This document shows, piece after piece, positions 13,335 to 33,667 of a DNA stretch of 38,570 nucleotides. The position numbers were made by a program, and so were the translations under genes. The notes beneath the pieces were generated by a model. The model saw only the letters and a program-made list of their open reading frames with translations, searched no databases and was not told where the DNA came from. The stretch is from Oscillospiraceae bacterium (GTDB taxonomy: Bacteria; Bacillota; Clostridia; Oscillospirales; Ruminococcaceae): the NCBI GenBank assembly GCA_017828955.1, contig JAGAJQ010000054.1, positions 1 through 38,570 on the forward strand, in the 5' to 3' direction. Position 1 is the stretch's first letter. Each line of letters opens with the position of its first letter.

Positions 13335-13368
13335 AATTCTGCGTCCTTTCGTTTATTTTATACTGGCA

Positions 13369-13662: not shown

Positions 13663-13683
13663 AAAAACATCTCCTTATATAAT

Positions 13684-14646
13684 TTAATTATTTCCTATTA
13701 TAACCGCACCGTTCATATGCATATATCCATAATGCTGAAGGAATTCTTCAACCTGCATACCATGAACGGGAGCGTTGTCAACTGCTGCCATAGCGGACTC
13801 TAAAGAAAGGTCGTTTGCATAAAGTTTTGTTTCAAACCCTGCGCCCCAGGAATTATCATAGAATGTGATTTCGCCATCTTTATGTATTCCGTCTATAAAC
13901 ATTACGTGCCCATATTCTCCCGAGTCGAAAGAAACAACTATGTTTCGCAGTGGCTCTGTCTGATCCGACGCCATATATTCATTGATCATCTGTCTGAATC
14001 CGTCAACGCCCGTATATCTGTTTTCGGGTGCACCCGCGTAGTTATCAAACCATTGTCCTCCGCTTGTGTTTCCTACTGTTGCGAAGGGATAACCAAGCCC
14101 CTTTTTATGAAGACGGTACATAGTCGAGAATGTGCAGGACACCCAGCCTGATTCATCGTTGAATGGTGCAACAGCAGGATCGCCGCCTGAGGGGTCGTCC
14201 TGATAATAATATCCGCCTGCACCCGAATATCCGGTTGCTCCCGCAAGGCCTTGTGACGAATAATCCTTTGCCTTGTATCTGTCGATAACAGCATTTGAAG
14301 TCGGCGATGAAGCAGATGGTATTTTGGGTAATTTTGAAGCAAATGCTCCGAAAAGTCTTGAAGCTGCTTTATCTGCTTCGGTCATATTTATGATATATTG
14401 GTTTACTCTTTTTGATATTTCCTCAAGAGAATCAGATATATCTTTCAGTTCGCGAACAAGTTGGTTTATTTGTCTGCAATATTCTGCTGATGCCTGTGAT
14501 CTCCAAAACTCCTCTATTCGATGCGAAACTATATTCATACGTTCCGTTTCAGCGTTAATCTCAGCAGCTACTGTTCGTATCTCTTCCGAGAACCGCTGAG
14601 CCTCCATAGTATCAATAATGGCTTCCATTTGTTCTGAAAAATTCAT
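13684..14646 (-). CDS. WXG-like N-terminal domain fused to a CHAP/NlpC-P60-like peptidoglycan hydrolase domain
   Basis: The N-terminal ~100 aa is a helical hairpin with FWRSQASAEY, followed by a Gly/Ser/Tyr linker. The C-terminal domain has a Cys (WVSCTFSTMY), a His (YGHVMFIDG) and Asp-Asn (ITFYDNSW), spaced like a CHAP catalytic triad. Confidence 0.65.
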   Translation of the reverse strand: MNFSEQMEAIIDTMEAQRFSEEIRTVAAEINAETERMNIVSHRIEEFWRSQASAEYCRQINQLVRELKDISDSLEEISKRVNQYIINMTEADKAASRLFGAFASKLPKIPSASSPTSNAVIDRYKAKDYSSQGLAGATGYSGAGGYYYQDDPSGGDPAVAPFNDESGWVSCTFSTMYRLHKKGLGYPFATVGNTSGGQWFDNYAGAPENRYTGVDGFRQMINEYMASDQTEPLRNIVVSFDSGEYGHVMFIDGIHKDGEITFYDNSWGAGFETKLYANDLSLESAMAAVDNAPVHGMQVEEFLQHYGYMHMNGAVIIGNN

Positions 14647-14664
14647 TAAAATGTTCCACCTCCT

Positions 14665-15009
14665 TTAATTGCCAAACATTTTTTTGGTTGAAAAAACACT
14701 TTTCGGGATTATACCTTCTATTCCCTCAAAAATATTTGAATCGGCCGTTTCGTAGTCTATTCTTGACTGGATTATAAACTCTTTTTCTTTGTTCAGGTTA
14801 TTTTCAAGATTTAAAATCTTGTCTGATGTTTTGGCCGATTTTGAGTAATATTCTGCTTTGGCATCTGTGCCCCAATGACTTTCGTAATATTCTTTCAGAT
14901 TGTCATATTCTGATTCTAATTCTCCGATTTTTTCGGAAATTTCACCGAGCTTGTTTGCAACCTCTGTCATTACCTGAGGGTCAGAAATTATGTATTTCAG
15001 CATTTCCAT
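14665..15009 (-). CDS. WXG100-like small helical protein (114 aa)
   Basis: Central HWGTDAKAEY motif and helical heptad character. C-terminal tail TKKMFGN. RBS GAGGTG. Confidence 0.6.
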   Translation of the reverse strand: MEMLKYIISDPQVMTEVANKLGEISEKIGELESEYDNLKEYYESHWGTDAKAEYYSKSAKTSDKILNLENNLNKEKEFIIQSRIDYETADSNIFEGIEGIIPKSVFSTKKMFGN

Positions 15010-15025
15010 TTTCTATCATCACCTC

Positions 15026-15415
15026 TTATCTGGAGCCACCGCCGCCACCGCCGAAGCTTCCTTCTCCGCCGCCGCTGAAACTTATCTGCGATGAATAAGC
15101 AACTCTGTTTCTTACTTTTGCGAGAACTTGTTTCTCGCATTCTTCGTATCTTGATATAGCTTTGTTGAGAATGTCTATTTCACTTTCTATACGACAAATA
15201 ATCGATTCGAATTTACATTTGGTTTGTTCTAATCTGTAAATCTGAAGTTCTCCTGCCATACCCTGCCATACCGAAGAGAGAAGATTTTTCTGATTGACAA
15301 ATTCATCGCGCAGTTCAACAACTTCTTGATGCTTTTTATCTAAGGCTGATTTCATATCTTTGAGTTGTTCAACATCCCAATAGATTTCATCGGAAAATAA
15401 TAAAGGGTTATACAT
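15026..15415 (-). CDS. WXG100-like protein with Gly-rich C-terminal tail
   Basis: WQGMAG motif and a C-terminus GGGEGSFGGGGGGSR. The listed ATG at 15421 sits only 2 nt from the GGAG of the RBS, so the second in-frame ATG at 15415 is preferred. Confidence 0.6.
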   Translation of the reverse strand: MYNPLLFSDEIYWDVEQLKDMKSALDKKHQEVVELRDEFVNQKNLLSSVWQGMAGELQIYRLEQTKCKFESIICRIESEIDILNKAISRYEECEKQVLAKVRNRVAYSSQISFSGGGEGSFGGGGGGSR

Positions 15416-15458
15416 TGTCATCGCTCCTTTCTGTTCGTTTTCTATATTCTACATCAAA

Positions 15459-15574: not shown

Positions 15575-15630
15575 AAAATGTGATATGATTGTGCTGTAAG
15601 ATACCTATTTATGTTAAAGGGGACATTTTT

Positions 15631-19741: not shown

Positions 19742-19747
19742 GAAAAA

Positions 19748-19786
19748 ATCCACACTCCCACAGGAGTGTGGATTTTTGTTTTTTTC
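19748..19786 (+). terminator. Rho-independent terminator
   Basis: 11-bp stem ATCCACACTCC / GGAGTGTGGAT with a 4-nt loop and a long T-run. Confidence 0.8.
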
Positions 19787-20214: not shown

Positions 20215-20243
20215 TTGACAGGTAATAATTAAAATAGTATAAT
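20215..20243 (+). promoter_or_regulatory. Near-consensus sigma-A promoter at the head of the long plus-strand T7SS operon
   Basis: TTGACA, exactly 17 nt, TATAAT, about 40 nt upstream of paralogue B. Confidence 0.55.
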
Positions 20244-20284
20244 AAATACGATTATACTCATTATATGGAAAGAGGCTTTTTATT

Positions 20285-21442
20285 ATGCAGAAAAAATCAA
20301 AAATAATCATAATTTCAATAGTTTCGGCAATTCTTTTAATTGTCGGAATTTTTACTGCCATAGCGCTGACGGGTGCGGATAATCCGACGCAGGCAGTTGC
20401 GACAGAAAAACTCTCTCTCGGACAGAAATTTCTTTTAGACCTCGAATACGACAAGGCCGTTGCGGAATTCACAGCAGTTATTGATATTGAGCCTAAGAAT
20501 GTTGACGCTTACATAGGCCTTGCTGATGCCTATATCGGAATGGGTGATGAAGAAAAAGCCATTGAAACCCTCGAAAAAGGTTTTATGGAAACAGGCGATG
20601 AAACTATCAGGGCGAAACTTGAAGAATTGAAAGCAACATTTAAAGGACCAAAAACAGAACGAACAGATTATAAAAATGGTTATTATCGTATAGATGAATA
20701 TGATTCAAACGGAAATTTGATAAAAAGGAGTTATTACGATACCAAAGGTGTTCTTGGAAATTATCGTATATATGAATATGATTCAAATGGAAATAAGATA
20801 AAAGAAAGTTGTTACAACAGAAATGAAACGACTTATTATACAAACGAATATGACTTGAATGGAAATTGTATAAAAATAAGTTACTACAAAATAAACGGGA
20901 TTCTTTGTTATATAGATGAGTATAATTTAAACGGAAAGTTGATAAAAAAGAGTTATTACAACGCCGATGGAACATATAGCTCGATACACGAATACGATTC
21001 AAACGGAATTTTGATAAAAAATAGTTATTACAACGCCGACGGAACGCTTGATTATATACTGGAATACGATTCAGACGGGAAATTGATAAGAGAAAACCAT
21101 TACAATGCCGACGGAATTTTTGATTGTATGCATGAATACGATTCGAAAGGTATTTTGATAAAAAGAAGTTGGTATAACCCCGATGGAACACTTATTGATT
21201 ATTACATATGCGAATGCAATTCAAATGGAAAATTGATAAAAGAAAACCATTACAATGCCGACGGGATTTTTGATTGTATATTGGAATACGATGTATATGG
21301 TAATGAAATAAAAAGAAGTTGGTATAACCCCGACGGAACGCTTATTGATTATTACACATACGAATACGATTCAGAGAGCCAACTTATAAAAGAAAATCAT
21401 TACGATGCCGACGGAACGCTTATCGAAGAATACACCTACTAA
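20285..21442 (+). CDS. Paralogue B: TM anchor + TPR module + YD-like repeats (no Thr-rich linker)
   Basis: The N-terminal ~110 aa is nearly identical to A, D and E. Junction KGPKTERTD, then about 11 repeats (EYDSNGNLIKRSYY, YNADGTLDYILEYDSDGKLIRENHY). Confidence 0.85.
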   Translation: MQKKSKIIIISIVSAILLIVGIFTAIALTGADNPTQAVATEKLSLGQKFLLDLEYDKAVAEFTAVIDIEPKNVDAYIGLADAYIGMGDEEKAIETLEKGFMETGDETIRAKLEELKATFKGPKTERTDYKNGYYRIDEYDSNGNLIKRSYYDTKGVLGNYRIYEYDSNGNKIKESCYNRNETTYYTNEYDLNGNCIKISYYKINGILCYIDEYNLNGKLIKKSYYNADGTYSSIHEYDSNGILIKNSYYNADGTLDYILEYDSDGKLIRENHYNADGIFDCMHEYDSKGILIKRSWYNPDGTLIDYYICECNSNGKLIKENHYNADGIFDCILEYDVYGNEIKRSWYNPDGTLIDYYTYEYDSESQLIKENHYDADGTLIEEYTY

Positions 21443-21460: not shown

Positions 21461-22126
21461 ATGAAAACAAAAATCTTATGTTACATAATCGACGGAATAA
21501 TACTCATATCGCTTATTGCGGTATGGGTTTATGTTCTTTTAACAGAAATGCCCATGAAATCAATAATCGCGATAGCGCTTATCTCGCTTGTCCTCATAAT
21601 ACTCGGCGGAGTTGTTCTTTTTGTGGCGATGAGAAGTGAAAGCGGAGAAAAGTCTGTTAAAAAACAGGTTGAAGAAAAAGAAGAAGTTCCCGTTATCGAA
21701 AAGCCTGAACCTGTTACTAAAAACAACGACGATCCGGAAACTGATATTATGCTAAAAGAACCGACAACAGAGATCATACTTGACAAAGGGTCTGACAAAA
21801 CAGAAATCATTCCTCAGAAGAGAAGTTTTTATGTAAAACTTCAGGATAAGAACAACTCTGTAAAGACATATCAGACATATTTTGACACAGAGGCTATCAT
21901 CGGAAGACATGAAGGAAACTGCAATATTGTCCTTGCGGATGAAAAGAGCGTTTCAAGACGCCATTGCAGACTTTTTGTCGATAAGGACAGAATTATGGCG
22001 GAGGACTTAGGGTCTTCAAACAGAACTTATGTAAACGGAATTCAGGTTGAGGGACGTGCACTTGAAATAAAAAGCGGAGATGAACTCAGAATGGGCAGAG
22101 CGATATTTATTGTCACAATAAATTAA
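21461..22126 (+). CDS. Membrane-anchored FHA-domain protein
   Basis: Two N-terminal TM helices and an acidic linker containing TTEII and KTEII. The C-terminal FHA domain has canonical phosphothreonine-binding residues (IIGRHE, SVSRRH, SSNRTYVNG). Confidence 0.85.
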   Translation: MKTKILCYIIDGIILISLIAVWVYVLLTEMPMKSIIAIALISLVLIILGGVVLFVAMRSESGEKSVKKQVEEKEEVPVIEKPEPVTKNNDDPETDIMLKEPTTEIILDKGSDKTEIIPQKRSFYVKLQDKNNSVKTYQTYFDTEAIIGRHEGNCNIVLADEKSVSRRHCRLFVDKDRIMAEDLGSSNRTYVNGIQVEGRALEIKSGDELRMGRAIFIVTIN

Positions 22127-22139: not shown

Positions 22140-23624
22140 ATGAAATACTGTGAATATACAAATACAGGAATAATCCGAAGCGTCAATCAGGACAGCCTTC
22201 TTTCGCTCTCGATGAACGGCTCGGGGCTTTTTGTCGTTGCCGACGGAATGGGCGGACATATAGACGGAGAGATTGCCAGCAAGGCTGTTAAAAAGGCCTG
22301 TCAGAAATGGTGGAACACATCTTTTATGGAAAATTCAGATATGGATTTTCTTCTGGCGGTTGAAGAAATCAAGGCAGCGATTGAAATTGTCAACAAAAAT
22401 CTCATAAAGAAAATGGAAGGTACGGGAAAAATCTGCGGAACAACCGTTGCCGTTGTTTTCATTCATAACGGTGCTTATGCCGCTATGAATATAGGCGACA
22501 GCAGAATATATCTTTCGAATAAAAGAGGTGTGCGTAAAATTTCATTTGACCACACCTTGAATTCGTTTGAGGAGATAAAAAACACCGCTCTTTCTGAAAA
22601 GGATAAACTTACTCAGGCGATAGGTGTTAAAGAAGATCTCAGCTGGTACACGGCGACAGATACACTCAAAAACGACGAAAAATTCTTTATCTGCACAGAC
22701 GGTGTTTATAAATACACAGAAGAGGAAGACCTTTTTTCTGCAATAAAGAATTACTCAGAAGAGGAAGAGATAAAGAAGGAAATCGAAAAGCAGGTTATCT
22801 TAGGCGGTGCGCCTGATAACTTTTCTTTTATTGCAATAGATATGAGAAAAGAAAAAGCCTCGGTTTCAAGAAAGCCTCTTATCATCGTTTCGGCGATAGC
22901 GGTTGCACTTTTCGTTATATTCACAGTGATTTTTGCGGTTGCCGTTTCGGGAGATAAAGGAGAAAATATACAGACTGTTATGTCTGAAAAACTCTCCCTC
23001 GGTCAGAAATTTCTTTTAGACCTCGAATACGACAAGGCTGTTGCAGAATTCACAGCCGTTATTGATATCGAGCCTAAGAATGTCGACGCTTATATGGGGC
23101 TTGCTTCTGCTTATATCGGTATGGGTGAAAAGGATAAGGCTATTGAAACTCTCGAAAAGGGTCTTATGGAAACGGACGACGAAACTATCAGGGCAAAACT
23201 TATGGAACTCAAAACCCCCGAAGAAACAACAGCAGAGGTGACTACTACCCCCGAAGAAACAACCCCCGAGACTACAACAACCCCTGAGGAGACGACAACT
23301 GTTCCTGAAACGACAATGGTTGTAACTACACAAAAAGCAGCAACAATAAAAAAATTCGAATATGAAGATGAGGATATTATAAGTGAATTTGATTCAAATG
23401 GAAGAATAATAAAAAGAAGTATCTATAAGAAAGACGGAACACTTTTAGAATACGAAATATATGGATACGATTCATACGGGAATATGTCAGAAGGATATTT
23501 TTATAAAGCAGACGGAACACTTCTTCGTTATTTCAGAGAAAAATACGATGAGAACGGAAGGATTGTAGATGCGACTATTAAAGTTTTAGAAGGAACAGCA
23601 TCTCCAATGGGAATTGTGCAATAA
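22140..23624 (+). CDS. PP2C (PPM) Ser/Thr phosphatase fused via a TM helix to the paralogue TPR + linker + YD-like ectodomain
   Basis: PPM motifs NQDS, VVADGMGGH, GDSRIY and TDGV. TM helix LIIVSAIAVALFVIFTVIFAVAV. This is followed by KLSLGQKFLLDLEYDKAVAEFTAVIDIEPKNVDAYMGL, a TTTPEETT linker and FDSNGRIIKRSIY repeats. Confidence 0.85.
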   Translation: MKYCEYTNTGIIRSVNQDSLLSLSMNGSGLFVVADGMGGHIDGEIASKAVKKACQKWWNTSFMENSDMDFLLAVEEIKAAIEIVNKNLIKKMEGTGKICGTTVAVVFIHNGAYAAMNIGDSRIYLSNKRGVRKISFDHTLNSFEEIKNTALSEKDKLTQAIGVKEDLSWYTATDTLKNDEKFFICTDGVYKYTEEEDLFSAIKNYSEEEEIKKEIEKQVILGGAPDNFSFIAIDMRKEKASVSRKPLIIVSAIAVALFVIFTVIFAVAVSGDKGENIQTVMSEKLSLGQKFLLDLEYDKAVAEFTAVIDIEPKNVDAYMGLASAYIGMGEKDKAIETLEKGLMETDDETIRAKLMELKTPEETTAEVTTTPEETTPETTTTPEETTTVPETTMVVTTQKAATIKKFEYEDEDIISEFDSNGRIIKRSIYKKDGTLLEYEIYGYDSYGNMSEGYFYKADGTLLRYFREKYDENGRIVDATIKVLEGTASPMGIVQ

Positions 23625-23681: not shown

Positions 23682-25898
23682 ATGTTTAAGCAAGGCGAAT
23701 TACTCAACGGAACATACAAGATAATCGAAAATATAGGCTCGGGCGGTGGCGGAGAAATCTATAAAGCCTATCATACACACCTCGATTGTTATGTTGCCGT
23801 TAAACTTATAAAGGATAACATCAAGGGAAAACTTGATGACAGGGCAGAAGCCGATATCCTCAAAAAAATAAAACATTCATATCTTCCTCAGGTTTATGAC
23901 TTTGTCATCACTGACGAGGGGGATGTCTATACGGTTATGGAATTCGTTGAGGGGATGTCTTTTTCAGAGCATCTCAAAAACGGAAAGACATTCACAAACG
24001 CACAGGTTATAAAATACGCAAAGCAGGCTTGTGAGGCACTTTCATACCTGCATACAAGAAAACCCGCTATTGTCCACAGTGATATCAAACCTGCGAATAT
24101 TATGCTTACTCCCGATGACAATATCTGCATAATAGACTTCAACATCTCGTCTGTACTCAGTGAAGGAGGAGCGTTTGCTGTCGGCAAAAGCGACGGATAT
24201 TCTCCCCCTGAGCAGTATGTAAAGAAGAACAAGACGGAAAAAGCAAAGACAGATAAAACATCAACAATAACAGAAACAGAAATCTTAGGCGAAACAGAAT
24301 TTGACAGTTTTGAAGAAGATACTTCGATAACAGTTACAACCATAACAGAAATCGAGGAGACAGAAGCTGTTACAGACATAGTAGGAGAAGAGAAAGAAGA
24401 AACTGATATCACTCCCGAAAAGAGCAGTAGTTTTGCCTCAAAGATGATAGTTTCAAAAGCGATTATTGATGAACGTTCAGATGTTTATGCCCTTGGCGCA
24501 ACACTTTATCATCTCATCAGCGGAAAAAGACCTGAAAAGTCGACAGATGGTGTTACTCCCATAAACAAACTCGATACAGAGGCAAGCTACGGACTTCGCT
24601 GTATCATTTCAAAGGCTATGGAAAATTCTCCGAAAAAGAGATATGCAAACGCAGGGGAGATGCTTATTGCCCTTGAAAATATTCACAGTATGGAAAAGCT
24701 ATATAAAAGCTTTACTTTAAGAAACCGCATAATCTATGCCCTTTTGATTTTGGGAACAGCCTTTTTCTCTGTTCTTGCCTTTATGGGATATAAGAGAATC
24801 GGAACAGAAAATGCCATGGCATATAAGGAGTATACAGAAAAGCTCGTCGTTTTAAGAGAAAAGGGCGACGAAAAGGGCTTTGAAGAAATCTATCAGAAGG
24901 CAGAGGCTATCTATAACGACAGACTCGATATCCATTTTCAGAAAGCACTCTTTCTTTTTGAAAAGGGTGAATATGATAACTGTCTTTCATATATGGATGA
25001 AATAATGAGAAATCATCCCGAATACACGGACGATGCCGAAATGGCGGACCTTTTATTCGTTCATGCAAACTGTTATTTTGAAAAAGAGGATTATTCTTCG
25101 GCTATCATAAAATACAAATCCGCGATAGATAAAAAATCGGATAACGGAGAATATTACCGCGACTATGCAATTTCTCTCGCGAGAACGGGCGAGCCGGACA
25201 AGGCTTCGGAAGTTCTGAAAAGGGCGACAGAACTCGGTCTTTCGGAAGAAAATATATGCCTCGTTGACGGCGAAATAGATTTTGTAAGAGGAAGATATGA
25301 AGAGGCTGAAAAATCGCTTTTGAAATGTATATCCGTTTCATCTGATGAATACATAAAACAGCGTGCGTATATTCTTATAAACAAGGTTTATTCAAAAACG
25401 GGCGAAACCGCAAAGAATACGGAAATTCTCGAAAAGGCTTTAAAGGAACTTCCCGAAGAAAGACTTTACAGCATATATGAGCTTCTTTCACAATGCTATC
25501 TTGATATGGGAAAAGAAACGGGTGAAAACGACTATTATCTCAAAGCCGTTGATATTTTTTCGGTTATGCAGAAAAAGGGTTTCGGCGGATACAGAGTTTC
25601 TGAAAATAAGGCTGTCGCTTATTATACAATAGGCGATTGCGAGTCGGCAAAGGCGGAACTGAATAAGATGAAAGAGGATTTCGGAGAAAATTATAGAACA
25701 GATATGTATCTCGCTTTCTGCGAACTTCGTGAAGAGTCTGAAAAAAGCAATAACAAGAGAGACTATTCGGATTTTCTCAAATATTACAATAACGCGAAAA
25801 GCCTTTATGAAAAAGAGGCAGAGGATGGTATGACCGATATGGAAATGCAGGTTCTCACGGACACATATCATCAGCTAAAAGAGGGCAACTGGTTTTAA
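23682..25898 (+). CDS. Membrane Hanks-type Ser/Thr protein kinase with C-terminal TPR-like domain
   Basis: G-loop GSGGGGEIYKA, VAVK lysine, catalytic loop HSDIKPANIML (non-RD), DFN and SPPE. A ~70-aa Thr/Glu-rich insert precedes SDVYALG. One TM helix (IIYALLILGTAFFSVLAFMGY), then ~370 aa of helical TPR-like repeats. Confidence 0.9.
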   Translation: MFKQGELLNGTYKIIENIGSGGGGEIYKAYHTHLDCYVAVKLIKDNIKGKLDDRAEADILKKIKHSYLPQVYDFVITDEGDVYTVMEFVEGMSFSEHLKNGKTFTNAQVIKYAKQACEALSYLHTRKPAIVHSDIKPANIMLTPDDNICIIDFNISSVLSEGGAFAVGKSDGYSPPEQYVKKNKTEKAKTDKTSTITETEILGETEFDSFEEDTSITVTTITEIEETEAVTDIVGEEKEETDITPEKSSSFASKMIVSKAIIDERSDVYALGATLYHLISGKRPEKSTDGVTPINKLDTEASYGLRCIISKAMENSPKKRYANAGEMLIALENIHSMEKLYKSFTLRNRIIYALLILGTAFFSVLAFMGYKRIGTENAMAYKEYTEKLVVLREKGDEKGFEEIYQKAEAIYNDRLDIHFQKALFLFEKGEYDNCLSYMDEIMRNHPEYTDDAEMADLLFVHANCYFEKEDYSSAIIKYKSAIDKKSDNGEYYRDYAISLARTGEPDKASEVLKRATELGLSEENICLVDGEIDFVRGRYEEAEKSLLKCISVSSDEYIKQRAYILINKVYSKTGETAKNTEILEKALKELPEERLYSIYELLSQCYLDMGKETGENDYYLKAVDIFSVMQKKGFGGYRVSENKAVAYYTIGDCESAKAELNKMKEDFGENYRTDMYLAFCELREESEKSNNKRDYSDFLKYYNNAKSLYEKEAEDGMTDMEMQVLTDTYHQLKEGNWF

Positions 25899-25910: not shown

Positions 25911-26066
25911 ATGATTGAATTTATAAAGAATCTTTCTGTCGGCGAGCTTATGTTCTATGGCGGAATTTCAGGCGCAGGGCTTTGCGTTATCGCGATGATA
26001 GTGGGAATTCCCCTTACAAACCTCGGCAAAAAGCAGGTTAAGAACAAAATAGACAAGGAGTATTAA
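25911..26066 (+). CDS. Small membrane protein (51 aa), absent from the ORF track
   Basis: RBS AAGGAG 8 nt upstream of the ATG. Sequence MIEFIKNLSVGELMFYGGISGAGLCVIAMIVGIPLTNLGKKQVKNKIDKEY has one TM helix and a basic tail. It exactly fills the gap between the kinase gene and paralogue D. Confidence 0.5.
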   Translation: MIEFIKNLSVGELMFYGGISGAGLCVIAMIVGIPLTNLGKKQVKNKIDKEY

Positions 26067-26069
26067 ACT

Positions 26070-27176
26070 ATGCAGAAGAAATCAAAAATAATTATCATTT
26101 CGATAGTTTCGGCTATCCTTTTGATCGTCGGAGTTTTTACTGCCATATCACTTACGGGTGCAGGAAATAATACAGAAAAAGTAACAACGGAAAAACTCTC
26201 TCTCGGGCAGAAATTTTTACTCGACCTTGAATACGACAAGGCCGTTGCGGAATTTCAGGCAGTTATTGATATCGAGCCTAAGAATGTTGACGCTTACATA
26301 GGGCTTGCGGATGCCTATATCGGAATGGGCGAAGAAGAAAAGGCAATAGAAACTCTCGAAAAAGGTTTTATGGAAACAGGCGATGAAACTATCAGGGCGA
26401 AACTCGATGAGATTAAAGAGGTTGAGGAGACGACAGCGGAGGTTACTACTACTCCCGAGGTGACGACAACTCCGCCTGAAACGACAACAGAGGAGGTAAC
26501 GACAACACCTGAGGTTACGACTACTCCCGAGGTTACTACAACACCCGAGGTGACAACAACTGAGGAAATAACTACAACTCCCGAGGTTACTACAACCCTA
26601 AAAGGTCCGAGAACGGAGAGGGTAGATTTTGATGACGGAAGTTATCTGATTCACGAATATGACAAAGATGGTCAGTGTTTAAAAGAAACAGTATATTATT
26701 CAAATGGCGAATCCTATGGAGAAGCCACTAACGGCTTAACTGGTTGGTGGAATAATAAGAAAAATGAAACAGTTGAATACCGGTTTATTCATTTTAATAA
26801 ATGGATACGCGAGTTTGATTCAAATGGAAATATGATAAAAGTAAGTTATTACAACGCCGACGGAACGCTTAGTTATTACTATATAAACGAATACGATTCA
26901 AATGGAAATAGGATAAAAGAAAGTAGTTACAACGGCGACGGAACACTTATAGTTATATTAGAATACGATTCAAATGGAAATAGGATAAAAGACAGTTGGT
27001 ACCACTCCGACGGAACACTTTATAATTACTCTATACACGAATACGATTCAAATGGAAATAGGATAAAAGAAAGTTGGTACACCCCCGACGGAACACTTTA
27101 TTTGATATCCGAATACGATTCAAATGGAAATAGGATAAAAGAAAGTTGGTACAACCCCGACGGAACACCGATGTAA
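26070..27176 (+). CDS. Paralogue D: TM anchor + TPR module + long PEVTTT linker + YD-like repeats
   Basis: The N-terminal module is by eye about 90% identical in nucleotides to paralogue A. Junction KGPRTERVD, then repeats EYDSNGNRIKESWY. Confidence 0.85.
   Translation: MQKKSKIIIISIVSAILLIVGVFTAISLTGAGNNTEKVTTEKLSLGQKFLLDLEYDKAVAEFQAVIDIEPKNVDAYIGLADAYIGMGEEEKAIETLEKGFMETGDETIRAKLDEIKEVEETTAEVTTTPEVTTTPPETTTEEVTTTPEVTTTPEVTTTPEVTTTEEITTTPEVTTTLKGPRTERVDFDDGSYLIHEYDKDGQCLKETVYYSNGESYGEATNGLTGWWNNKKNETVEYRFIHFNKWIREFDSNGNMIKVSYYNADGTLSYYYINEYDSNGNRIKESSYNGDGTLIVILEYDSNGNRIKDSWYHSDGTLYNYSIHEYDSNGNRIKESWYTPDGTLYLISEYDSNGNRIKESWYNPDGTPM
26421..26598 (+). repeat. Thr/Pro/Glu/Val low-complexity tandem repeat (PEVTTT units)
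   Basis: EVTTTPEVTTTPPETTTEEVTTTPEVTTTPEVTTTPEVTTTEEITTTPEVTTT, encoded by degenerate 18-nt units. Confidence 0.8.
26811..27173 (+). repeat. Intragenic tandem 72/78-bp repeats, about 5 units
   Basis: Unit starts at 26811, 26889, 26961, 27039 and 27111. The string GAATACGATTCAAATGGAAATAGGATAAAAGA recurs four times, at the last four unit starts. Confidence 0.85.
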
Positions 27177-27202: not shown

Positions 27203-30200
27203 ATGGCATATATATTTTATTTCAACTTCAAAGAAAATGTTTATGAATACCCGTTGCCTGCTGTCAACAACAGGGTCATAAGCATTGATATATCTGAATT
27301 CTCATCGGAAAAAGGCGTTATAAATCTTGAAATCTTTGACGGCGTATGGAAACTCCTCCCCTCAGAAGATTTCAACTTCTCAGTGAACAACTCAATAATA
27401 ACAGAGAAGAAAATCGAAGACGGCGACAAAATCACAGCGAAGAAAAAACGCGGGGAACTCACCTTTATGATTTTTGCGCTCAAAGCCTCTGAAAACACAA
27501 GCGTATACAGAAAATGGTCGCTCGAAGGGGTAAACAGGGTTACTGTCGGTATGGATGAAAACTGCGATATCGTTTATAAAGAACAGTTTGTCAGCCATAA
27601 ACACGCAACTATCGAAAGAAAAGGCTCGGGCTTTTTCCTTACAGACAATTCAACAAACGGAACATTTTTAAATGGCTCGAAAATATCGGGCGAAACCCCT
27701 CTTTCTATCTTTGACACAATATACATACTGGGTCTTAAAATAATCTTTTTAGGCGAATATATAGCAACAAACAAGATTTTGGAACTCGGCGTTTCGCTTA
27801 CTGAAATATGCGATATAAACAATGATTATGAGCCTTATGAGGATGAATCCGACTTTTCTCGTTCACCGAGAAGAATAGAGCCTCTCGATGAAGAAGTAAT
27901 TGAGATAGAATCCCCTCCCTCACAGCATAAGGCTTCGAGTCAGCCTCTTATTTTCATAATAGGCCCTTCGGTAACAATGCCACTGCCGATTATGATTTCT
28001 GTCATCATAAATATGATGTCATCGGGCAACACATCAAATCCGCTTATGTATTTAGGAACGGTAATTTCCGTTGTATGTTCGGGATTCATAGGCGCGGGTT
28101 GGGCACTCGCACATCAGTTTTATAACAAGAAGACAGTTAAAAAACAGGAAGAAGCAAGAGTAAAGGCATATGGCGAATATATTGCCAAAAACGAAAATCT
28201 TCTCTCTGAAAAACAGGATAAGAACAAGCGTATTATAGATGAACAGTTTTTATCCTCAGATAAACTTATGAAAAAGGTTTTCAAGGATAAGACTTTTTTA
28301 TGGAACAGAAATATAAACCACGCCGATTTCTCGAAAATCCGTTTCGGAACAGGCTCTGTAAAACTTCCTAACGGAATATCTGTTCCCAAGGAAAGATTTT
28401 CTATGAATGACGACACCCTTGCCGACAAGCCGAGAGAGCTTTTCGACCGTTACAACACAATGGAAGACTGCGCATATACCGCAAGACTCAACGACAGCAA
28501 GATATGGGGCGTTATCGGTGAATATAAGAATGTTATGAATATCGTCAATAACATCGCCGTTCAGCTTTCGGCGCTCCATAGTTATAGCGATATCAAGATA
28601 GCGATTCTCTGTAAAGAAAACGAAAAGGAAAAATATCTCTGGATGAAGTGGCTTCCTCATATATTCTCATCCGACAGAAAAGTAAGAATGTTCGGATGCG
28701 ACAGCAACTCTGTAAAGAATGTATGCAATTTCCTCGGCGGAGAACTCCGTTCAAGAGAGGAGAATGCAGAGGGTGCATTATCAAGGGATTTAAGATTTCT
28801 CCCTCATTATTTCGTTATCTGCACAGACAAGTCCATCCTTGAAAAGAACAGTCTTTCAAAATACATAATGAATAATTCCGAGCTCGGTTTTACATTCATT
28901 CTTGCATACGAAAAGATGGACAAACTCCCCAATGAATGTAAGGTCATCATACAGCATGACGAAACATACAGCGGAATATATTCGCTTTCATCAACTATCG
29001 ACGAAACAAACTCTGTAAATTTCGATAACGTTGATGTAAAATACGCAGAAAAATATGCAAGAGCAATAAGCGGACTTTATCTTACAGAATTCACACAGGG
29101 CGAAATCCCCGCTTCTATCGATTATCTCGATATGCTCGGCATAGGAAAATTCGAACAATGGAACCTTATCAGAAAATACAAGGAAAACCGTTCTTATGAA
29201 AGTCTTGCTTCGTTTATAGGAATAGGAACAGGTAACCGCCCCGTTGTTCTTGATATCAGCGAAAAGATGCATGGTCCTCATGGTCTTATTGCGGGAACAA
29301 CAGGCTCGGGTAAGAGTGAAACAATACAGACATTTATTCTTTCGCTTATTTTAAATTACAGCCCCGATGAAGTTGCGTTTATCCTTATTGACTATAAGGG
29401 TGGAGGAATGGCAGCCGCTTTTGAAGGAATACCTCACCTTGCGGGAATTATCACAAACCTCGGCGGAGATACAGGCGAGGGTGAGATTGACGAAAACCTT
29501 ACAAGACGTGCACTTATCTCGATAAAGAGTGAAATAAAGAGAAGACAGCAGATTTTCAACCGCTATAAAGTAAACCATATAAACCAGTATATAAAGATGT
29601 ACAGAGGCGGTGCTGTCAGCGAAGCATTACCCCATTTGATTATTATATCGGACGAATTTGCAGAACTTAAACACAAACAGCCTGAATTCATCAAAGAACT
29701 TGTCAGCGTTGCCAGAGTAGGAAGAAGCCTCGGCGTTCATCTTATACTTGCAACACAGAAACCTTCGGGGGTTGTCGATGAAGAAATCTGGAGTAACTCA
29801 CGTTTCAAAATCTGTCTTAAAGTTCAGGACAAGCAGGACAGTATAGGAATGCTCAAACGCCCCGAGGCAGCATATCTTGTCAATACGGGACGCGCTTATA
29901 TGCAGATAGGAAACGATGAGATTTTTGATATGTTCCAGTCGGGATATTCGGGTGCTGAATATATGCCGACAGATGAATTTGTTTCTTCAAAGGATAAGGA
30001 AGTCATTATGATTGATATCGACGGAACATATCTTGAAGAAAACACAATGACAGGAAAAGGAAATCAGACAGGTATCTCACAGCTTAAAGCGGGTATTGAT
30101 TATGTAATAAATGTTTCGGCAATGAGTGGTTTCAAACCGACAAGAAAACTTTGGAATGAATGTCTGCCTTCGCTTATCGGTCTTGATAAACTTGATGTTT

Positions 30201-31798
30201 CGGGCATTGATTTTAAAAGCGGGCTCATCTCCTGCTATGGTATCATTGATAACCCTGAAAAACAGTCACAGTATCCTGCTGTCGTTGATGTTTCAAAGAC
30301 ATCTCATATACTTGTTTCAGGTATGTCAGGCTCAGGAAAATCAACATTCTTACAGACAATGGTATATTCTCTTGTTTCAAGATATACTCCCGATGAAATA
30401 CAGTTCTACTTCATAGATTTTTCAAGCAGAACAACAAGAAAATTTGAAAAGCTTCCTCATTGCGGAGGAGTTGTTTTCCAGGAACACAACGAACTCATAG
30501 AAAGACTTTTCAGACTTCTTGAAAACGAATGTGATGAAAGAAGAAGAATTTTCGATAAGGCAGATGCGGGAAGTTTCGGTGAATATACAAAGAAGAATAA
30601 AATGCCTATGATACTTGTTGTAATCGACAATTATGCAGGTTTTTCAGAAGGGTATCCCGAACTTGCAGAAAAACTCGCAGGGTTTTCAAGAGACTGCCTT
30701 AAATACGGCATCCAGCTTGTTATTTCAGCGAATAATACAAACGATGTGAAATACAAGACAATGCAGAATATCGGATATAAAATCGCACTCCGCCTTTCAG
30801 ACCGTTATGGATATAACGAAATACTCGGTGGTGCGCCCGAATTCACACCTTCAAAATATGCAGGCCGTGGTCTTGTAAAAGAAGACGGTATTTTAGAATT
30901 CCAGACAGCTGTTCCGTTTGAAATCGAAGATGAAACAGAACGTTCTGAAAAGATGATAAAGGAATTTTCAGATATCGCAAAGAAATACAAGAAACACACT
31001 CCCGCAAAGAGAATTCCGTCTATCCCCAGGGATGAAATATATGCTGATTTCTATGAAAAGAATAAGGCGGATGGTATGATTCCTTTAGGATACGATACAA
31101 ACGATATCTCACCTCTTTCTCTTTCGAGACGTGATACATTCTGTCTTGCTGTCGGTGCTTCTGAAGAAAAGAGTATATCGCTTATGTTCAGTAACTTCAC
31201 TTACTGTGCGAAACAGTCGGGCGCTGTTGTATGGTATTTTAAAACATCGACAGATATGCTCTGTAAACCTGAATATGTCGACAGGGTTTATACAAAGACA
31301 AAAATCGAAGATTTTCTTAAAGCCTTGCAGAAAGAGTTTGAAACTGCATCTGAAATAAGAGGGAAATATAAGGATTCTATGAGTGTAAACGAGATGGAAA
31401 CAAAGGTTGTCGAAGAAAAGAAGATGCTCTATATCTTTATTGATAATATGGCAGAATTTTGTAAGATAATATATAATCCCAAAAATGAATATCCGCTTAA
31501 TAATATTGTTGAGGAGACATTCAGATATGGCGAAAAGAGAGGGGTAACCTTTATAGTTGGCTTCGGAACTGATAGCTATATCGACGCTATACACAGCACA
31601 GCCTGCAGGAATTTCCTCTTTAATAAGACAATTCTTCATATCGGCGGACATCTTGATCAGCAGAAACTTTATTCTTCATCATTGCCTTATAATATCCAGA
31701 ACAGACCTCTTGATTTACAGACAGGCTATTTCTTCAACGGAACAACCGAAAGACAGATATTCATACCATTGTCCGAACGAGGTGAAAACGATGCTTGA
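27203..31798 (+). CDS. essC: T7SS FtsK/SpoIIIE-family ATPase EssC (N-terminal FHA region, 2 TM helices, 3 ATPase domains)
   Basis: FHA-like segment VTVGMDENCDIVYKEQFVSHKHATIE...STNGTFLNG and two TM helices. D1 has GTTGSGKSE and IIISDEFAEL. D2 has GMSGSGKST and VVIDNYA. D3 has the degenerate P-loop GASEEKS. The 1531-aa length is typical of EssC/YukB. Confidence 0.9.
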   Translation: MAYIFYFNFKENVYEYPLPAVNNRVISIDISEFSSEKGVINLEIFDGVWKLLPSEDFNFSVNNSIITEKKIEDGDKITAKKKRGELTFMIFALKASENTSVYRKWSLEGVNRVTVGMDENCDIVYKEQFVSHKHATIERKGSGFFLTDNSTNGTFLNGSKISGETPLSIFDTIYILGLKIIFLGEYIATNKILELGVSLTEICDINNDYEPYEDESDFSRSPRRIEPLDEEVIEIESPPSQHKASSQPLIFIIGPSVTMPLPIMISVIINMMSSGNTSNPLMYLGTVISVVCSGFIGAGWALAHQFYNKKTVKKQEEARVKAYGEYIAKNENLLSEKQDKNKRIIDEQFLSSDKLMKKVFKDKTFLWNRNINHADFSKIRFGTGSVKLPNGISVPKERFSMNDDTLADKPRELFDRYNTMEDCAYTARLNDSKIWGVIGEYKNVMNIVNNIAVQLSALHSYSDIKIAILCKENEKEKYLWMKWLPHIFSSDRKVRMFGCDSNSVKNVCNFLGGELRSREENAEGALSRDLRFLPHYFVICTDKSILEKNSLSKYIMNNSELGFTFILAYEKMDKLPNECKVIIQHDETYSGIYSLSSTIDETNSVNFDNVDVKYAEKYARAISGLYLTEFTQGEIPASIDYLDMLGIGKFEQWNLIRKYKENRSYESLASFIGIGTGNRPVVLDISEKMHGPHGLIAGTTGSGKSETIQTFILSLILNYSPDEVAFILIDYKGGGMAAAFEGIPHLAGIITNLGGDTGEGEIDENLTRRALISIKSEIKRRQQIFNRYKVNHINQYIKMYRGGAVSEALPHLIIISDEFAELKHKQPEFIKELVSVARVGRSLGVHLILATQKPSGVVDEEIWSNSRFKICLKVQDKQDSIGMLKRPEAAYLVNTGRAYMQIGNDEIFDMFQSGYSGAEYMPTDEFVSSKDKEVIMIDIDGTYLEENTMTGKGNQTGISQLKAGIDYVINVSAMSGFKPTRKLWNECLPSLIGLDKLDVSGIDFKSGLISCYGIIDNPEKQSQYPAVVDVSKTSHILVSGMSGSGKSTFLQTMVYSLVSRYTPDEIQFYFIDFSSRTTRKFEKLPHCGGVVFQEHNELIERLFRLLENECDERRRIFDKADAGSFGEYTKKNKMPMILVVIDNYAGFSEGYPELAEKLAGFSRDCLKYGIQLVISANNTNDVKYKTMQNIGYKIALRLSDRYGYNEILGGAPEFTPSKYAGRGLVKEDGILEFQTAVPFEIEDETERSEKMIKEFSDIAKKYKKHTPAKRIPSIPRDEIYADFYEKNKADGMIPLGYDTNDISPLSLSRRDTFCLAVGASEEKSISLMFSNFTYCAKQSGAVVWYFKTSTDMLCKPEYVDRVYTKTKIEDFLKALQKEFETASEIRGKYKDSMSVNEMETKVVEEKKMLYIFIDNMAEFCKIIYNPKNEYPLNNIVEETFRYGEKRGVTFIVGFGTDSYIDAIHSTACRNFLFNKTILHIGGHLDQQKLYSSSLPYNIQNRPLDLQTGYFFNGTTERQIFIPLSERGENDA

Positions 31799-32522
31799 TG
31801 TTTATATCTATGACGCGGATATTTCAAGGCATACTACTGTTCAGAGCTATTGTTTCAGATTTTTTATGAGGAAAAATCTGACATCCGAAATAAAACTCAT
31901 AACAGCCGACGCTATGGAAGCAGGCAGAGTTTTTTCAGAAGAGGAGAAGCAATCTGTTTTTATAATAAGCTGTGATGAATATTCCGATTATCTTATAAAA
32001 TCTATGAGAAAAGGGAATGCCGAAAATTATCTGATAATTGTTGCAAACGATTTTGATGATATTCTTAAATATCTGAAACCCGGTCATAAACCATCAGGAT
32101 TTATATTAAGACCTATGAAACCCTATGACATAGAAAAACTTATGGGAGATATAATTTCGGATTATAAATCGAAAAAAGAAAAGCAGGAGTTTGATTGTTT
32201 TGTTTTCAAGATGAAGTCAACGGAATACAGCATTCCGTTTGACTCGATAATATCCTTTGAAAGCGGAAACAAGAAAATAAAACTGAAAACCGCCGAAAAG
32301 GAATATTCCTTTTACAGCACATTCGATGATATACAGAACACCCTCCCCGATGGGTTTATAAGGGTGCATAAAAGCTATATCATCAATATGGCGCATATAA
32401 AAGAAATTCATTATGCCGATTCTGAAATTATTTTAAGCGGTGGAACAAGCGTTTATTTTTCAAGGACATACCGCAGTGTTGTCAGAGAACTTTTCAACAT
32501 AAACGCAGAAACAGTCTCATAG
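31791..32522 (+). CDS. LytTR-family DNA-binding protein with atypical receiver-like N-terminal domain
   Basis: ATG at 31791 follows RBS GAGGTGA and overlaps the essC stop (ATGCTTGA). The listed start at 31557 lies inside essC. The C-terminal LytTR motif is FIRVHKSYIINMAHIKEI. The N-terminal domain has VYIYDAD and VFIISCD but lacks the conserved receiver Thr/Ser and Lys (LIIVAN, FILRP). Confidence 0.75.
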   Translation: MLDVYIYDADISRHTTVQSYCFRFFMRKNLTSEIKLITADAMEAGRVFSEEEKQSVFIISCDEYSDYLIKSMRKGNAENYLIIVANDFDDILKYLKPGHKPSGFILRPMKPYDIEKLMGDIISDYKSKKEKQEFDCFVFKMKSTEYSIPFDSIISFESGNKKIKLKTAEKEYSFYSTFDDIQNTLPDGFIRVHKSYIINMAHIKEIHYADSEIILSGGTSVYFSRTYRSVVRELFNINAETVS

Positions 32523-32534: not shown

Positions 32535-32792
32535 ATGACAAAGATACTTGTTGAAATAAATTGCCCCTCAACTGCAAGAAACTATGAATTCTGGATTTCA
32601 AAGCAGATGATTGTAAAGGACGTTATAAAAATCTGCAAAGAAGAAATCTGTATGACAGAGGGCAATAAGAAGATTTTCAACGATAACGAAAATATGGTGC
32701 TTTTTTCACAGAGGCTCCGTATTCCGCTTAATGAAAACTATACCGCAACCGAAGCGGGAATCATAAGCGGAGATAAACTTATGATTGTTTAA
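32535..32792 (+). CDS. esaB: YukD/EsaB-like ubiquitin-fold T7SS protein (85 aa)
   Basis: Size, a beta-grasp-like pattern (KILVEINCP, YEFWISKQMIVKDV, ISGDKLMIV at the C-terminus) and position beside essC. RBS AGGAGG. Confidence 0.65.
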   Translation: MTKILVEINCPSTARNYEFWISKQMIVKDVIKICKEEICMTEGNKKIFNDNENMVLFSQRLRIPLNENYTATEAGIISGDKLMIV

Positions 32793-32806
32793 AGAGGACG
32801 AATTTT

Positions 32807-33652
32807 ATGCAGAAAAAATCAAAAATAATCATAATTTCGGTAGTTTCGGCAATTCTTTTAGTTGTAGGAGTTTTTACCGCCATAGCACTCACAGGTAAGG
32901 GAAACAGCATTGAAAAAGAGGTCGGCGAAAAGCTCTCTCTCGGGCAGAAATTCTTGCTTGACCTCGAATACGACAAGGCCGTTGCGGAATTTCAGGCAGT
33001 TATTGATATCGAGCCTAAGAATGTTGACGCTTATATAGGCCTTGCTGATGCCTATATCGGCATGGGCGAAGAAGAAAAGGCAATAGAAACCCTCGAAAAA
33101 GGTTTTATGGAGACAGGCGATGAAAAGATTCAGGCGAAACTCGAAGAGATGAAAACCCCCGAAGAAACAACCGCAGAGGTAACCACAACACCCGAGGAGA
33201 CGACAACTGTTCCTGAAACTACAACAACAGTTGCGACGACAGCCAAAAAATCAGGCTGGACAGAGAGGAAAGATTATAGCGATGGTTCTTATCGGATAAT
33301 CGAATACGATTCGGACGGGCATATGATAAAATCAAGTTATTACAACGCTGACGGAACGCTTAATTATTACTATATAAACGAATACGATTCAAAAGGAATT
33401 TTGATAAAAAATAGTTTTTACAATGCCGACGGCATACTTGATTGCTATTATACTTATGAATATTATTCCTATCCTGGCAAATACAAAAAAGCATATAAAT
33501 ATCTTCCTGACGGAACACTTGACAGTTATTCTTTATTTGAATATTATGAATCCGGTTACATCAAAAAACAGACATGGTATTACCAATCGGGTGGCGAAGG
33601 CTGGCATGATTGGGAAGACGGAGAAGCCATGTGGGCTCATGCGATTTGGTAA
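32807..33652 (+). CDS. Paralogue E: TM anchor + TPR module + Thr-rich linker + YD-like repeats
   Basis: Same MQKKSKIIIIS start and TPR module. Repeats EYDSDGHMIKSSYYNADGTL. The divergent Trp-rich C-terminus is WYYQSGGEGWHDWEDGEAMWAHAIW. Confidence 0.85.
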   Translation: MQKKSKIIIISVVSAILLVVGVFTAIALTGKGNSIEKEVGEKLSLGQKFLLDLEYDKAVAEFQAVIDIEPKNVDAYIGLADAYIGMGEEEKAIETLEKGFMETGDEKIQAKLEEMKTPEETTAEVTTTPEETTTVPETTTTVATTAKKSGWTERKDYSDGSYRIIEYDSDGHMIKSSYYNADGTLNYYYINEYDSKGILIKNSFYNADGILDCYYTYEYYSYPGKYKKAYKYLPDGTLDSYSLFEYYESGYIKKQTWYYQSGGEGWHDWEDGEAMWAHAIW

Positions 33653-33667
33653 TTTTTGGATTTTCAT

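Follow-up and report, generated by a model that had tools for sequence, protein, structure and literature searches.

A TsxD-type, probably active membrane Ser/Thr kinase encoded with EssC in an Oscillospiraceae bacterium

A 38,570-nucleotide stretch of an Oscillospiraceae genome (contig JAGAJQ010000054.1 of assembly GCA_017828955.1, positions 1 to 38,570; the window) encodes, at 23682-25898, a membrane Ser/Thr kinase in one operon with essC, the ATPase gene of type VII secretion systems (T7SS). The locus raises the question of whether this kinase occupies the position of EssB, the T7SS pseudokinase of the same topology, and whether, as proposed in an initial annotation of the sequence, it links such pseudokinases to active Hanks kinases. 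By the published description of architecture and gene neighbourhood, the window kinase is of the TsxD type. TsxD membrane Ser/Thr kinases were described in T7SSc, d, e and j by Garrett, Higginson and Palmer in 2024, who defined the subtypes T7SSc-j and noted that TsxD has EssB-like topology and an intact active site (PMC11217815). The comparison with EssB is therefore already in print, and with it the central idea of the initial annotation. It is moderately likely that the kinase, itself probably active, forms together with a membrane PP2C phosphatase and a membrane FHA protein a threonine-phosphorylation switch for the EssC machine.

The kinase gene has a GGAGG-type ribosome-binding site directly 5' of its ATG. 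The gene and its parts are located as follows.

23682..25898, + strand: membrane Ser/Thr kinase gene (TsxD-type), ATG start, 738 aa (open reading frame (ORF), Pfam and AlphaFold2)
23715..24686, + strand: cytoplasmic Hanks-type kinase domain, aa ~12-335
24222..24458, + strand: disordered Thr/Glu-rich insert in the kinase C-lobe, aa 181-259, with a predicted local distance difference test score (pLDDT) < 35
24726..24788, + strand: single transmembrane (TM) helix, aa ~349-369 (hydropathy scan and AlphaFold2)
24804..25895, + strand: extracytoplasmic all-helical TPR domain, aa ~375-738 (~365 aa; Pfam and AlphaFold2)

Residues 12-252 matched Pfam Pkinase (PF00069) with an E value of 4.3e-38 and 131.7 bits against a cutoff of 31.7, and residues ~417-555 matched TPR families (TPR_12, TPR_19, TPR_14 and others). 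The hydropathy scan detected only one hydrophobic segment, at residues ~349-369. The AlphaFold2 model, built on an alignment of homologues, had a mean pLDDT of 80.8; the kinase fold was confident, a continuous helix (residues 334-394) crosses the membrane, and the C-terminal helical repeat domain reaches the C terminus with a pLDDT of ~90 or higher. The kinase domain, single TM helix and ~370-aa TPR-like domain described in the initial annotation were thus borne out. That description did not include the disordered insert, which comprises ~80 residues and sits between the SPPE (APE) motif and the alpha-F helix.

The active site consists of the G-loop G19-S-G-G-G-G24, VAVK with K41, the alpha-C Glu E56, a catalytic loop of the non-RD type (H132-S-D134-I-K-P-A-N139), the Mg-site motif D152-F-N154 and S174-P-P-E177. 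When the window protein was aligned with 30 full-length homologues (37-98% identity), G19, G21, G22, G24, K41, E56, H132, D134, K136, N139, D152, F153, N154, P176 and E177 were invariant, as was the C-terminal W737 of the TPR domain. The same 31 sequences show that DFN instead of DFG is a family-wide trait. All motifs named in the initial annotation (G-loop, VAVK Lys, HSD Asp, DFN and SPPE) were present and conserved. Their invariance in homologues indicates that the active-site motifs are under purifying selection and are not chance matches, and it suggests that the kinase is probably catalytically active.

The degraded catalytic motifs that mark the EssB pseudokinase were not found in the window kinase, whose motifs are intact and conserved. 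The protein is EssB-like in being bitopic, in its cytoplasmic kinase fold and in being co-encoded with essC. Neither half of it matched PF10140 (YukC/EssB), even at E <= 10, and none of the NCBIfam EssB models (e.g., TIGR03926) was among its matches. When a profile of the kinase family was aligned by hhalign with the S. aureus EssB domain, whose sequence had been checked against PDB 4ANN (213 of 215 residues identical), the probability was 0.4%. Against PDB sequences the family profile matched M. tuberculosis PknB (4e-36), followed by S. aureus PknB, StkP and PknA; designed TPR proteins, which also matched, are left aside in this ranking. Foldseek of the AlphaFold2 model against the PDB found many active eukaryotic kinases as well as PknA (TM-score 0.78 on the target) and PknG, which is a kinase with a TPR domain. 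EssB/YukC was not among the best 60 PDB sequence matches nor among the best 50 Foldseek matches.

The kinase domain is an ordinary Hanks domain, and PknB/PknA is its group by sequence and fold. A specific relationship to EssB was rejected, the results of Pfam, NCBIfam, hhalign against the 4ANN-validated domain and Foldseek against the PDB all being negative. Nothing indicates a specific evolutionary tie to EssB, despite the common topology and genomic position. The proposed bridge between T7SS pseudokinases and active Hanks kinases consequently found no support (no PF10140 match, an hhalign probability of 0.4% and no EssB among the best 60 and best 50 matches), and the profile and structural comparison suggested for it led to PknB/PknA-type kinases, not to EssB. 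Assignment as a housekeeping PASTA kinase was also rejected: model NF033483 scored 147 bits against a cutoff of 450 and covered residues 5-185 only. The protein has no PASTA repeats, and its ectodomain is of the TPR type.

Ten plus-strand genes, separated by intergenic gaps of 3-57 nt and flanked by a promoter and a terminator, form one operon in the order TM-TPR, 2TM-FHA, membrane PP2C, kinase, 51-aa TM, TM-TPR, EssC, LytTR, YukD-like and TM-TPR. Its features besides the kinase gene are listed here.

19744-19777: terminator with a 15-bp stem, closing the preceding unit upstream of the operon promoter
20215..20243, + strand: sigma-70-type promoter, TTGACA-17-TATAAT (12/12 consensus), 5' of the operon
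20285..21442, + strand: surface protein with N-terminal TM helix, TPR and DUF2963 repeats (Pfam), operon gene 1
21461..22126, + strand: 221-aa FHA protein with two TM helices (Pfam FHA, 8e-18; TM scan)
22140..23624, + strand: 494-aa PP2C (PPM) phosphatase (Pfam PP2C_2, 4.6e-14)
25911..26066, + strand: 51-aa single-TM protein, directly 3' of the kinase gene (ORF and TM scan)
26070..27176, + strand: TM, TPR and DUF2963-repeat paralogue (Pfam, repeat family D2)
27203..31798, + strand: EssC/TsxC ATPase, 1531 aa, with N-terminal FHA domains (TIGR03928)
31791..32522, + strand: LytTR-domain regulator, 243 aa, overlapping the end of essC (Pfam LytTR, 6e-22)
32535..32792, + strand: YukD/EsaB-like (TsxB) ubiquitin-fold candidate, 85 aa (weak full-length PF08817 match, E = 0.035)
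32807..33652, + strand: TM, TPR and DUF2963 paralogue, last operon gene (Pfam)
33666-33701: terminator with a 16-bp stem, 3' of the last operon gene

The EssC encoded at 27203-31798 is genuine, with 1066.7 bits in TIGR03928 against a cutoff of 778.4. No match to EssB/YukC (PF10140), EssA or EsaA (NCBIfam) was found among the ORFs tested in the window, and for these ORFs the earlier description of a locus without EssB was confirmed. The FHA domain of the 221-aa protein keeps GR, SRRH (SxxH) and Asn; DUF6382 gave no match in this protein at E <= 1. The PP2C protein has a TM helix at aa ~245-270 and an extracytoplasmic TPR/DUF2963-like segment (TM scan), and its match to the NCBIfam Stp1/IreP family (1.2e-39) lies below the cutoff of that model. 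The TM-TPR-DUF2963 protein at 20285..21442 is a candidate sensor or partner.

The kinase family is large, with > 3000 proteins at E <= 1e-10. The full-length matches listed (~720-740 aa, 34-41% identity) came from Lachnospiraceae, Oscillospiraceae, Ruminococcus, Herbinix and other Clostridia. When one genome per species was scanned, 481 relatives were obtained; 80 loci (L001-L080) were kept from these and their 10-kb flanks examined. EssC was encoded within 10 kb on the same strand in 21-22 of the 80 kinase loci, strict T7SS markers (EssC, WXG100 or YukD) were present in 26, FHA proteins in 37 and PP2C in 24. Unbiased clustering of the neighbouring ORFs at these 80 loci, followed by Pfam annotation, placed near the kinase a TM-TPR-repeat family (42 loci), DUF6382-FHA (TsxJ; 31), TM-TPR-WG (24), WXG100 (21), EssC (20), LytTR (16, after EssC), vWA-TM-FHA (15) and YukD (9).

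The linkage was also found from the side of EssC. All three EssC homologues that were looked up (81, 46 and 34% identity; loci L081-L083) had a kinase-TM-TPR gene within 10 kb. In each of these loci essC was immediately followed by a LytTR gene, and an ORF of ~83-85 aa was present. Among the called genes of L081-L083, no precomputed Pfam family characteristic of EssB, EssA or EsaA was listed. The gene order of L081 equals that of the window, and the exact window protein occurs on one metagenome scaffold with the same operon (L084, the same locus). The LytTR gene is called with 243 aa at the equivalent position in L084 and L081. The 85-aa YukD-like protein aligned over its full length with small ORFs of related loci (hhalign probability 97.9%), and one small related-locus ORF aligned with it matches YukD PF08817 at 5.8e-8. 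The 51-aa TM ORF is a gene call in L081, L084 and L085, with a 49-aa ORF at the equivalent position in L082, and homologous small TM ORFs lie directly 3' of the kinase in ~12 of the 80 loci. No family was assigned to this protein, a possible small membrane subunit like TsxH or TsxK. The locus with the 34%-identity EssC, L083, belongs to the cultured Holdemania massiliensis (HE998568.1) and has an EssC-LytTR-YukD-like core and two kinase genes, one of them with TPR. H. massiliensis could be a possible experimental model.

Tad-pilus genes (T2SSF, TadE, DUF5702 and A24 prepilin peptidase) were present at 17 of the 80 kinase loci, none of them among the 26 with strict T7SS markers. In the four Tad-linked loci whose order was inspected (L056, L028, L015 and L063), TM-TPR-WG and DUF6382-FHA genes are followed, after one extra gene in two of the four, by the kinase gene. 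The Tad operon runs T2SSF, TadE, DUF5702, TadE, A24 peptidase, TM-TPR-WG and FHA, with the kinase at or near its downstream end; in two of the four loci the next ORF after the kinase is a small TM one. In a neighbour-joining tree, T7-linked, Tad-linked and unclassified kinases were interleaved; a T7SS-specific kinase clade was rejected because T7- and Tad-linked members do not separate. Since the kinase family and DUF6382-FHA, with PP2C in some loci, also occur in Tad-pilus operons, the cassette is evidently portable, and this occurrence favours a portable Thr-phosphorylation cassette over a dedicated EssB substitute.

The initial annotation had named two things that together would speak against its proposal, grouping with PknB-type kinases and missing linkage to essC elsewhere. 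The grouping was found, but the linkage recurs (21-22 of the 80 kinase loci and all three EssC look-ups). The proposal of an active counterpart at the EssB position therefore survives in part: an EssC operon without EssB, the bitopic topology and the conserved active site stand, but there is no specific relationship to EssB, and the kinase family also closes Tad-pilus operons.

Two motifs in the disordered insert of the window kinase, TETEIL and TDIV, are candidate sites of phosphorylation and of FHA docking. Across the family the insert varies from 20 to 265 aa and often holds tandem units, such as DKTELL, DRTEIL, GTVLLN and DQTVPDRF. Motifs were counted in 71 homologues with an insert of at least 30 aa, delimited by sequence anchors, and compared with composition-preserving shuffles. 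T-x-[LIV]-[LIVMF] was observed 147 times, against 21.9 +/- 4.5 in the shuffles (maximum 37). The corresponding serine pattern, S-x-[LIV]-[LIVMF], was not enriched (13 observed, 16.9 shuffled), and of the stricter T[ED][LIVMF][LIVMF] there were 116 copies where 5.1 were expected.

In the window, the strict motif occurs twice in the kinase insert and three times within 24 residues of the FHA-protein linker (ETDIML, TTEIIL and KTEIIP). It does not occur in the 1531-aa EssC or in the PP2C; other copies in the window are single and lie in the kinase TPR domain (aa 580), in ORF o461 (aa 199) and in the N-terminal TM helix of ORF o248. One or two acidic x-T[VE][LI][LI] motifs were found in 10 of 13 inspected FHA proteins of related loci, most of the 13 being from the DUF6382-FHA cluster. 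The motifs lie mostly 10-25 residues before the FHA domain and are present also where the insert of the partner kinase is short. FHA domains recognise phosphothreonine (pThr) with a hydrophobic residue at +3. The motifs are proposed as kinase acceptor sites and FHA ligands because the pattern is Thr-specific with a hydrophobic +3 residue and because the FHA domain keeps GR, SRRH and Asn. The contact between motif and FHA domain may be intramolecular, as in GarA/OdhI, or bridging.

In the favoured threonine-phosphorylation switch, the TPR ectodomain would receive a signal, possibly together with the paralogous TM-TPR surface proteins. The non-RD kinase would then phosphorylate acidic T-[ED/V]-[LIV]-[LIVM] motifs in its own insert and in the FHA linker, as the enrichment of Thr motifs suggests. 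The resulting pThr could be read by the FHA domain of the 221-aa protein and, possibly more weakly, by FHA2 of EssC. By analogy with T6SS (type VI secretion systems), GarA/OdhI and Esr-Esx, this reading might alter the assembly or activity of the secretion complex, or LytTR signalling, and the PP2C would reset the switch.

Several observations weigh against such a switch. In the kinase, the Gly of DFG is replaced by Asn and HRD by HSD, and it is conservation alone that points to activity. The FHA2 domain of the window EssC keeps SxxH and NG, but G-M replaces G-R; the phosphate-binding Arg is thus lost, and G-R is present in just 5 of 19 related EssCs. By comparison, the GR motif is 98-100% conserved in TsdC, TseC and TsjC, and GR/SxxH/NG are 100/100/100% conserved in TsjC (PMC11217815). 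The loss of the Arg makes direct docking on EssC through pThr doubtful. Nor is the Thr motif universal, some homologues having a 20-aa insert only, and exact Thr 4-mers in 33 pairs of kinase and FHA partner showed no covariation. The motif counts are inflated by sequence relatedness and are not independent; the window insert alone contributes 2 strict motifs (shuffle mean, 0.25). At the 17 Tad-linked loci no EssC was seen within 10 kb, and the Tad association means that T7SS control is not the sole role of the kinase family.

Other explanations differ in the part that they give to catalysis. A structural substitute for EssB would be a core scaffold that dimerises and holds the FHA domains of EssC, with catalysis secondary or dispensable, and might stand for the active state ancestral to EssB. 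A bitopic protein whose N-terminal part has a kinase fold and whose ectodomain is helical suits this role, as do the position of the kinase two genes upstream of essC in one operon, the EssB/TraF-like bitopic models published for TsxD (PMC13037476) and the lack of EssB, EssA and EsaA in the window and in L081-L083. This absence covers the window and those three loci, however, and the genome may hold EssB elsewhere. No sequence relationship to EssB is detectable, the best 60 sequence and 50 fold matches contain active kinases instead of EssB/YukC, and the strict conservation of catalytic residues argues that catalysis matters. The same family also occurs in Tad operons without EssC within 10 kb, with T7 and Tad members interspersed in the tree. 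The substitute is considered unlikely. A pseudokinase scaffold, in which DFN and HSD abolish phosphotransfer, is very improbable. Both deviations are present, and DFN is family-wide, but there is no variation in the Lys, the alpha-C Glu, the catalytic Asp/Asn, the Mg-binding Asp or the G-loop. Activity is common among non-RD kinases, and a PP2C and a pThr-competent FHA domain are co-encoded.

The Tad association bears on a further explanation, in which kinase and FHA protein, with PP2C in some loci, form a portable regulatory cassette that controls transcription of the host operon, T7SS or Tad, and the kinase stands outside the apparatus. Control would here run via LytTR. The kinase closes the Tad operon in 17 of the 80 loci, LytTR follows essC in 16 loci and in L081-L083, and the output of the Esr pathway is transcriptional in Actinomycetales (PMC13622651). 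On the other hand, Pfam recognised in the LytTR protein no receiver or FHA domain that would link it to pThr, EssC itself has FHA domains, the FHA partner is anchored in the membrane next to the machine, and the EssC of Tad-linked loci may sit more than 10 kb away. A purely transcriptional cassette is thus thought to be on the unlikely side, though credible. That the protein is a housekeeping PrkC/PknB-type cell-wall kinase which happens to adjoin a T7SS is hardly credible. Its nearest solved relatives are PknB, PknA and StkP, and the gene directly before that of the kinase encodes a PP2C, an arrangement known from prkC-prpC pairs. The protein lacks PASTA repeats, however, the PASTA model reaching 147 bits of the 450 needed and only on the kinase domain; the gene lies inside the essC operon, and in dozens of species it is again syntenic with T7SS or Tad genes. 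The threonine-phosphorylation switch for the EssC machine remains the preferred reading.

Placement of the locus among the published subtypes was examined through EssC and gene content. The N termini of reference TsxC proteins (~610-680 aa; ~410-420 aa for TscC, TsgC and TshC) were rebuilt, with some errors, from optical character recognition (OCR) text of Fig. S2 of PMC11217815. In BLAST against these OCR-derived sequences, the window EssC scored highest with TsiC (206 bits, 27% identity over the N-terminal 630 aa), followed by TseC (173), TsfC (169), TsdC (136), TsjC (129) and S. aureus EssC (87). All OCR-derived TsxC representatives were only 21-27% identical to the window EssC, and none was close. 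Membership in T7SSe or T7SSj was rejected on this identity, with TsiC nearest. With regard to T7SSj, the EssC is not of the TsjC type, there is no TsjI-like large ORF, and the FHA protein lacks DUF6382. The largest ORF of the window apart from EssC has 738 aa, so that no large Ig-like TsxI gene is present there. With regard to T7SSi, TsiC is nearest (27%) and LytTR and YukD-like genes are present, but the kinase, PP2C and FHA protein contradict the published gene set. The Holdemania EssC (WP_020225064) is not in the accession lists of PMC11217815, and a database search with the OCR-derived TsjC sequence, which contains errors, gave no match.

By the criteria of PMC11217815, EssC phylogeny and gene content, the locus looks like a further T7SS variant. 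Its gene set, with D-, F- and J-like components and LytTR, fits none of the published T7SSc-j and is possibly new. It is suggested only tentatively that the locus represents an undescribed subtype of gut and rumen Clostridia and Erysipelotrichaceae, with a multisite pThr code, interchangeable TM-TPR sensors and a cassette that was also recruited to Tad pili. If so, an EssC nearest that of T7SSi would be joined in one set with LytTR, a YukD-like protein, a TPR kinase, a membrane PP2C and a TM-anchored FHA protein, and the tandem acidic T-[EV]-[LI]-[LI] motifs in the kinase insert and FHA linker would constitute a code read by FHA domains.

Outside the operon, five WXG100-family genes were recognised by Pfam on the opposite strand.

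13011..15421, - strand: five WXG100-family genes, at 13011-13334, 13369-13662, 13684-14646, 14665-15009 and 15026-15421

The cluster likely comprises TsxA, Lap proteins and an effector. The gene at 13684-14646 encodes 320 aa, with an N-terminal WXG100-like and a C-terminal CHAP peptidoglycan-hydrolase domain, amid the four small WXG100 genes. This WXG100-CHAP protein is likely a cell-wall-degrading T7SS effector with Lap-like partners. Directly downstream of the cluster, a 442-aa ORF (11609-12937, - strand) has no Pfam or NCBIfam match and no TM segment; its product may be an effector or accessory protein.

A 300-nt module encoding a TM helix and one TPR unit (EKLSLGQKFLLDLEYDKAVAEF...) is present in five copies with 66-93% DNA identity, at 15630-15929, 20284-20583, 22865-23164, 26069-26368 and 32806-33105. 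Four copies head full-length TM-TPR-DUF2963 paralogues; the fifth, a weaker copy within the PP2C gene, encodes the beginning of the phosphatase ectodomain. Relatives of the TM-TPR proteins carry WG, LRR, PASTA or beta-propeller domains in place of the C-terminal repeats, and the module proteins may be interchangeable sensors or recombination cassettes. The PP2C (22140-23624), the protein at 26070-27176 and other TM-TPR paralogues have Thr/Pro/Glu-rich linkers (TTTPEVTTTPE...) between the TPR and the DUF2963/YD-like repeats, and these linkers look like cell-wall-spanning stalks.

Adjoining the operon on the minus strand (33708-37060) are genes for an AgrC-like GHKL histidine kinase (HATPase_c_5), a LytTR response regulator and a BTAD-domain protein, which may exert quorum-type transcriptional control of the locus. 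An XRE-type helix-turn-helix gene (19858-20169, - strand) lies just upstream of the operon promoter. Genes for a CotH kinase, a DUF4956 protein and a VTC-domain protein (6010-9133, - strand) are apparently unrelated to the T7SS locus.

The gene set, the Thr-repeat insert with matching motifs in the FHA protein, the membrane-anchored phosphatase and the Tad association are modestly new. To our knowledge, T7SS variants beyond those of mycobacteria, staphylococci and Bacillus are known from genomics alone, and none of their kinases has been tested. Loci of this type are widespread among Lachnospiraceae, Oscillospiraceae and Erysipelotrichaceae of the gut and rumen, some cultured species included. 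Carriers include H. massiliensis, Lachnoanaerobaculum sanguinis JCM 36186, Blautia luti and Ventrimonas faecis. The locus offers a testable model, in which a secretion ATPase would be controlled by defined Thr motifs in two disordered segments together with a single pThr-competent FHA domain and a membrane PP2C. If correct, the model would explain how interbacterial weapons, or pili, are turned on and off in commensal Firmicutes. As to the origin of the EssB pseudokinase, no evidence ties the window kinase to that question.

EssB/YukC of T7SSb (PDB 4ANN, 2YNQ and 6Z0F) resembles the window kinase in its bitopic topology, cytoplasmic kinase-like fold, helical ectodomain and encoding in an essC operon. 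It differs in its degraded catalytic motifs, which are intact in the window kinase, and sequence similarity is not detectable. EssB has LDMR, YTFVLAPD and TRG for VAIK, HRD and DFG, as well as a degraded G-loop (PMC12599244). According to the account of Tassinari 2022 given in PMC11217815, EssB binds the FHA domains of EssC.

Closer likeness is found in the TsxD systems. TsxD and TsjD share with the window protein a cytoplasmic kinase with a conserved active site, one TM helix and a helical ectodomain; the C terminus of TsjD is TPR (PMC11217815). The bitopic TsxD models were likened again to EssB, and to TraF, by Kuhlmann et al. in 2026 (PMC13037476). PPM phosphatases (TsxF) and DUF6382-FHA proteins (TsxJ) accompany TsxD, and phosphoregulation of T7SSd, e and j was suggested, which by analogy with T6SS may control assembly (PMC11217815). 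These systems and the window have in common an FHA-bearing EssC, a PPM phosphatase, an FHA protein, WXG100 and YukD-like proteins and the lack of EssB. In contrast to TsxD systems and T7SSj, the window EssC is not TsjC/TseC-like, TsiC scoring best, and its clade has lost the GR that TsdC, TseC and TsjC keep. The phosphatase of the window is membrane-anchored with an ectodomain, its FHA protein has two TM helices and no DUF6382, a large Ig-like TsxI gene is absent from the window, and LytTR follows essC.

T7SSi (Vallitalea; TsiB, TsiC, TsiG, TsiM and TsiN) has the nearest EssC, which likewise has poor FHA pThr motifs, and shares LytTR (TsiN), a YukD-like gene and WXG100 genes at variable positions. 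It was described without a TsxD kinase, a PPM phosphatase or a separate FHA protein, and among the published subtypes a LytTR regulator was reported only for this kinase-less one (PMC11217815). TsiG- and TsiM-like genes were not identified in the window.

The T6SS pathway also has a membrane Hanks kinase, a PP2C and an FHA protein within a secretion cluster. In PpkA/PppA/Fha1 of T6SS and in TssL-Fha of A. tumefaciens, pThr on a membrane component attracts the FHA protein and turns secretion on. The machine is a different one, however, the hosts are diderm, and the kinase ectodomain is not TPR. We know of no Thr-repeat insert described in the lobe of a T6SS kinase.

A kinase/phosphatase/FHA pathway that controls Esx in an actinomycete was demonstrated experimentally (PMC13622651, bioRxiv 2026). 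This threat-sensing Esr pathway of Actinomycetales belongs to another phylum and includes MoxR, vWA, transglutaminase and beta-propeller filament sensors; vWA-TM-FHA occurs in 15 of the 80 related loci but not in the window. The likeness lies in the kinase/phosphatase pair, the diversified surface sensors, the association with Esx operons and an FHA output protein with a pre-FHA Thr, this Thr being phosphorylated in the disordered region before the FHA domain (PMC13622651).

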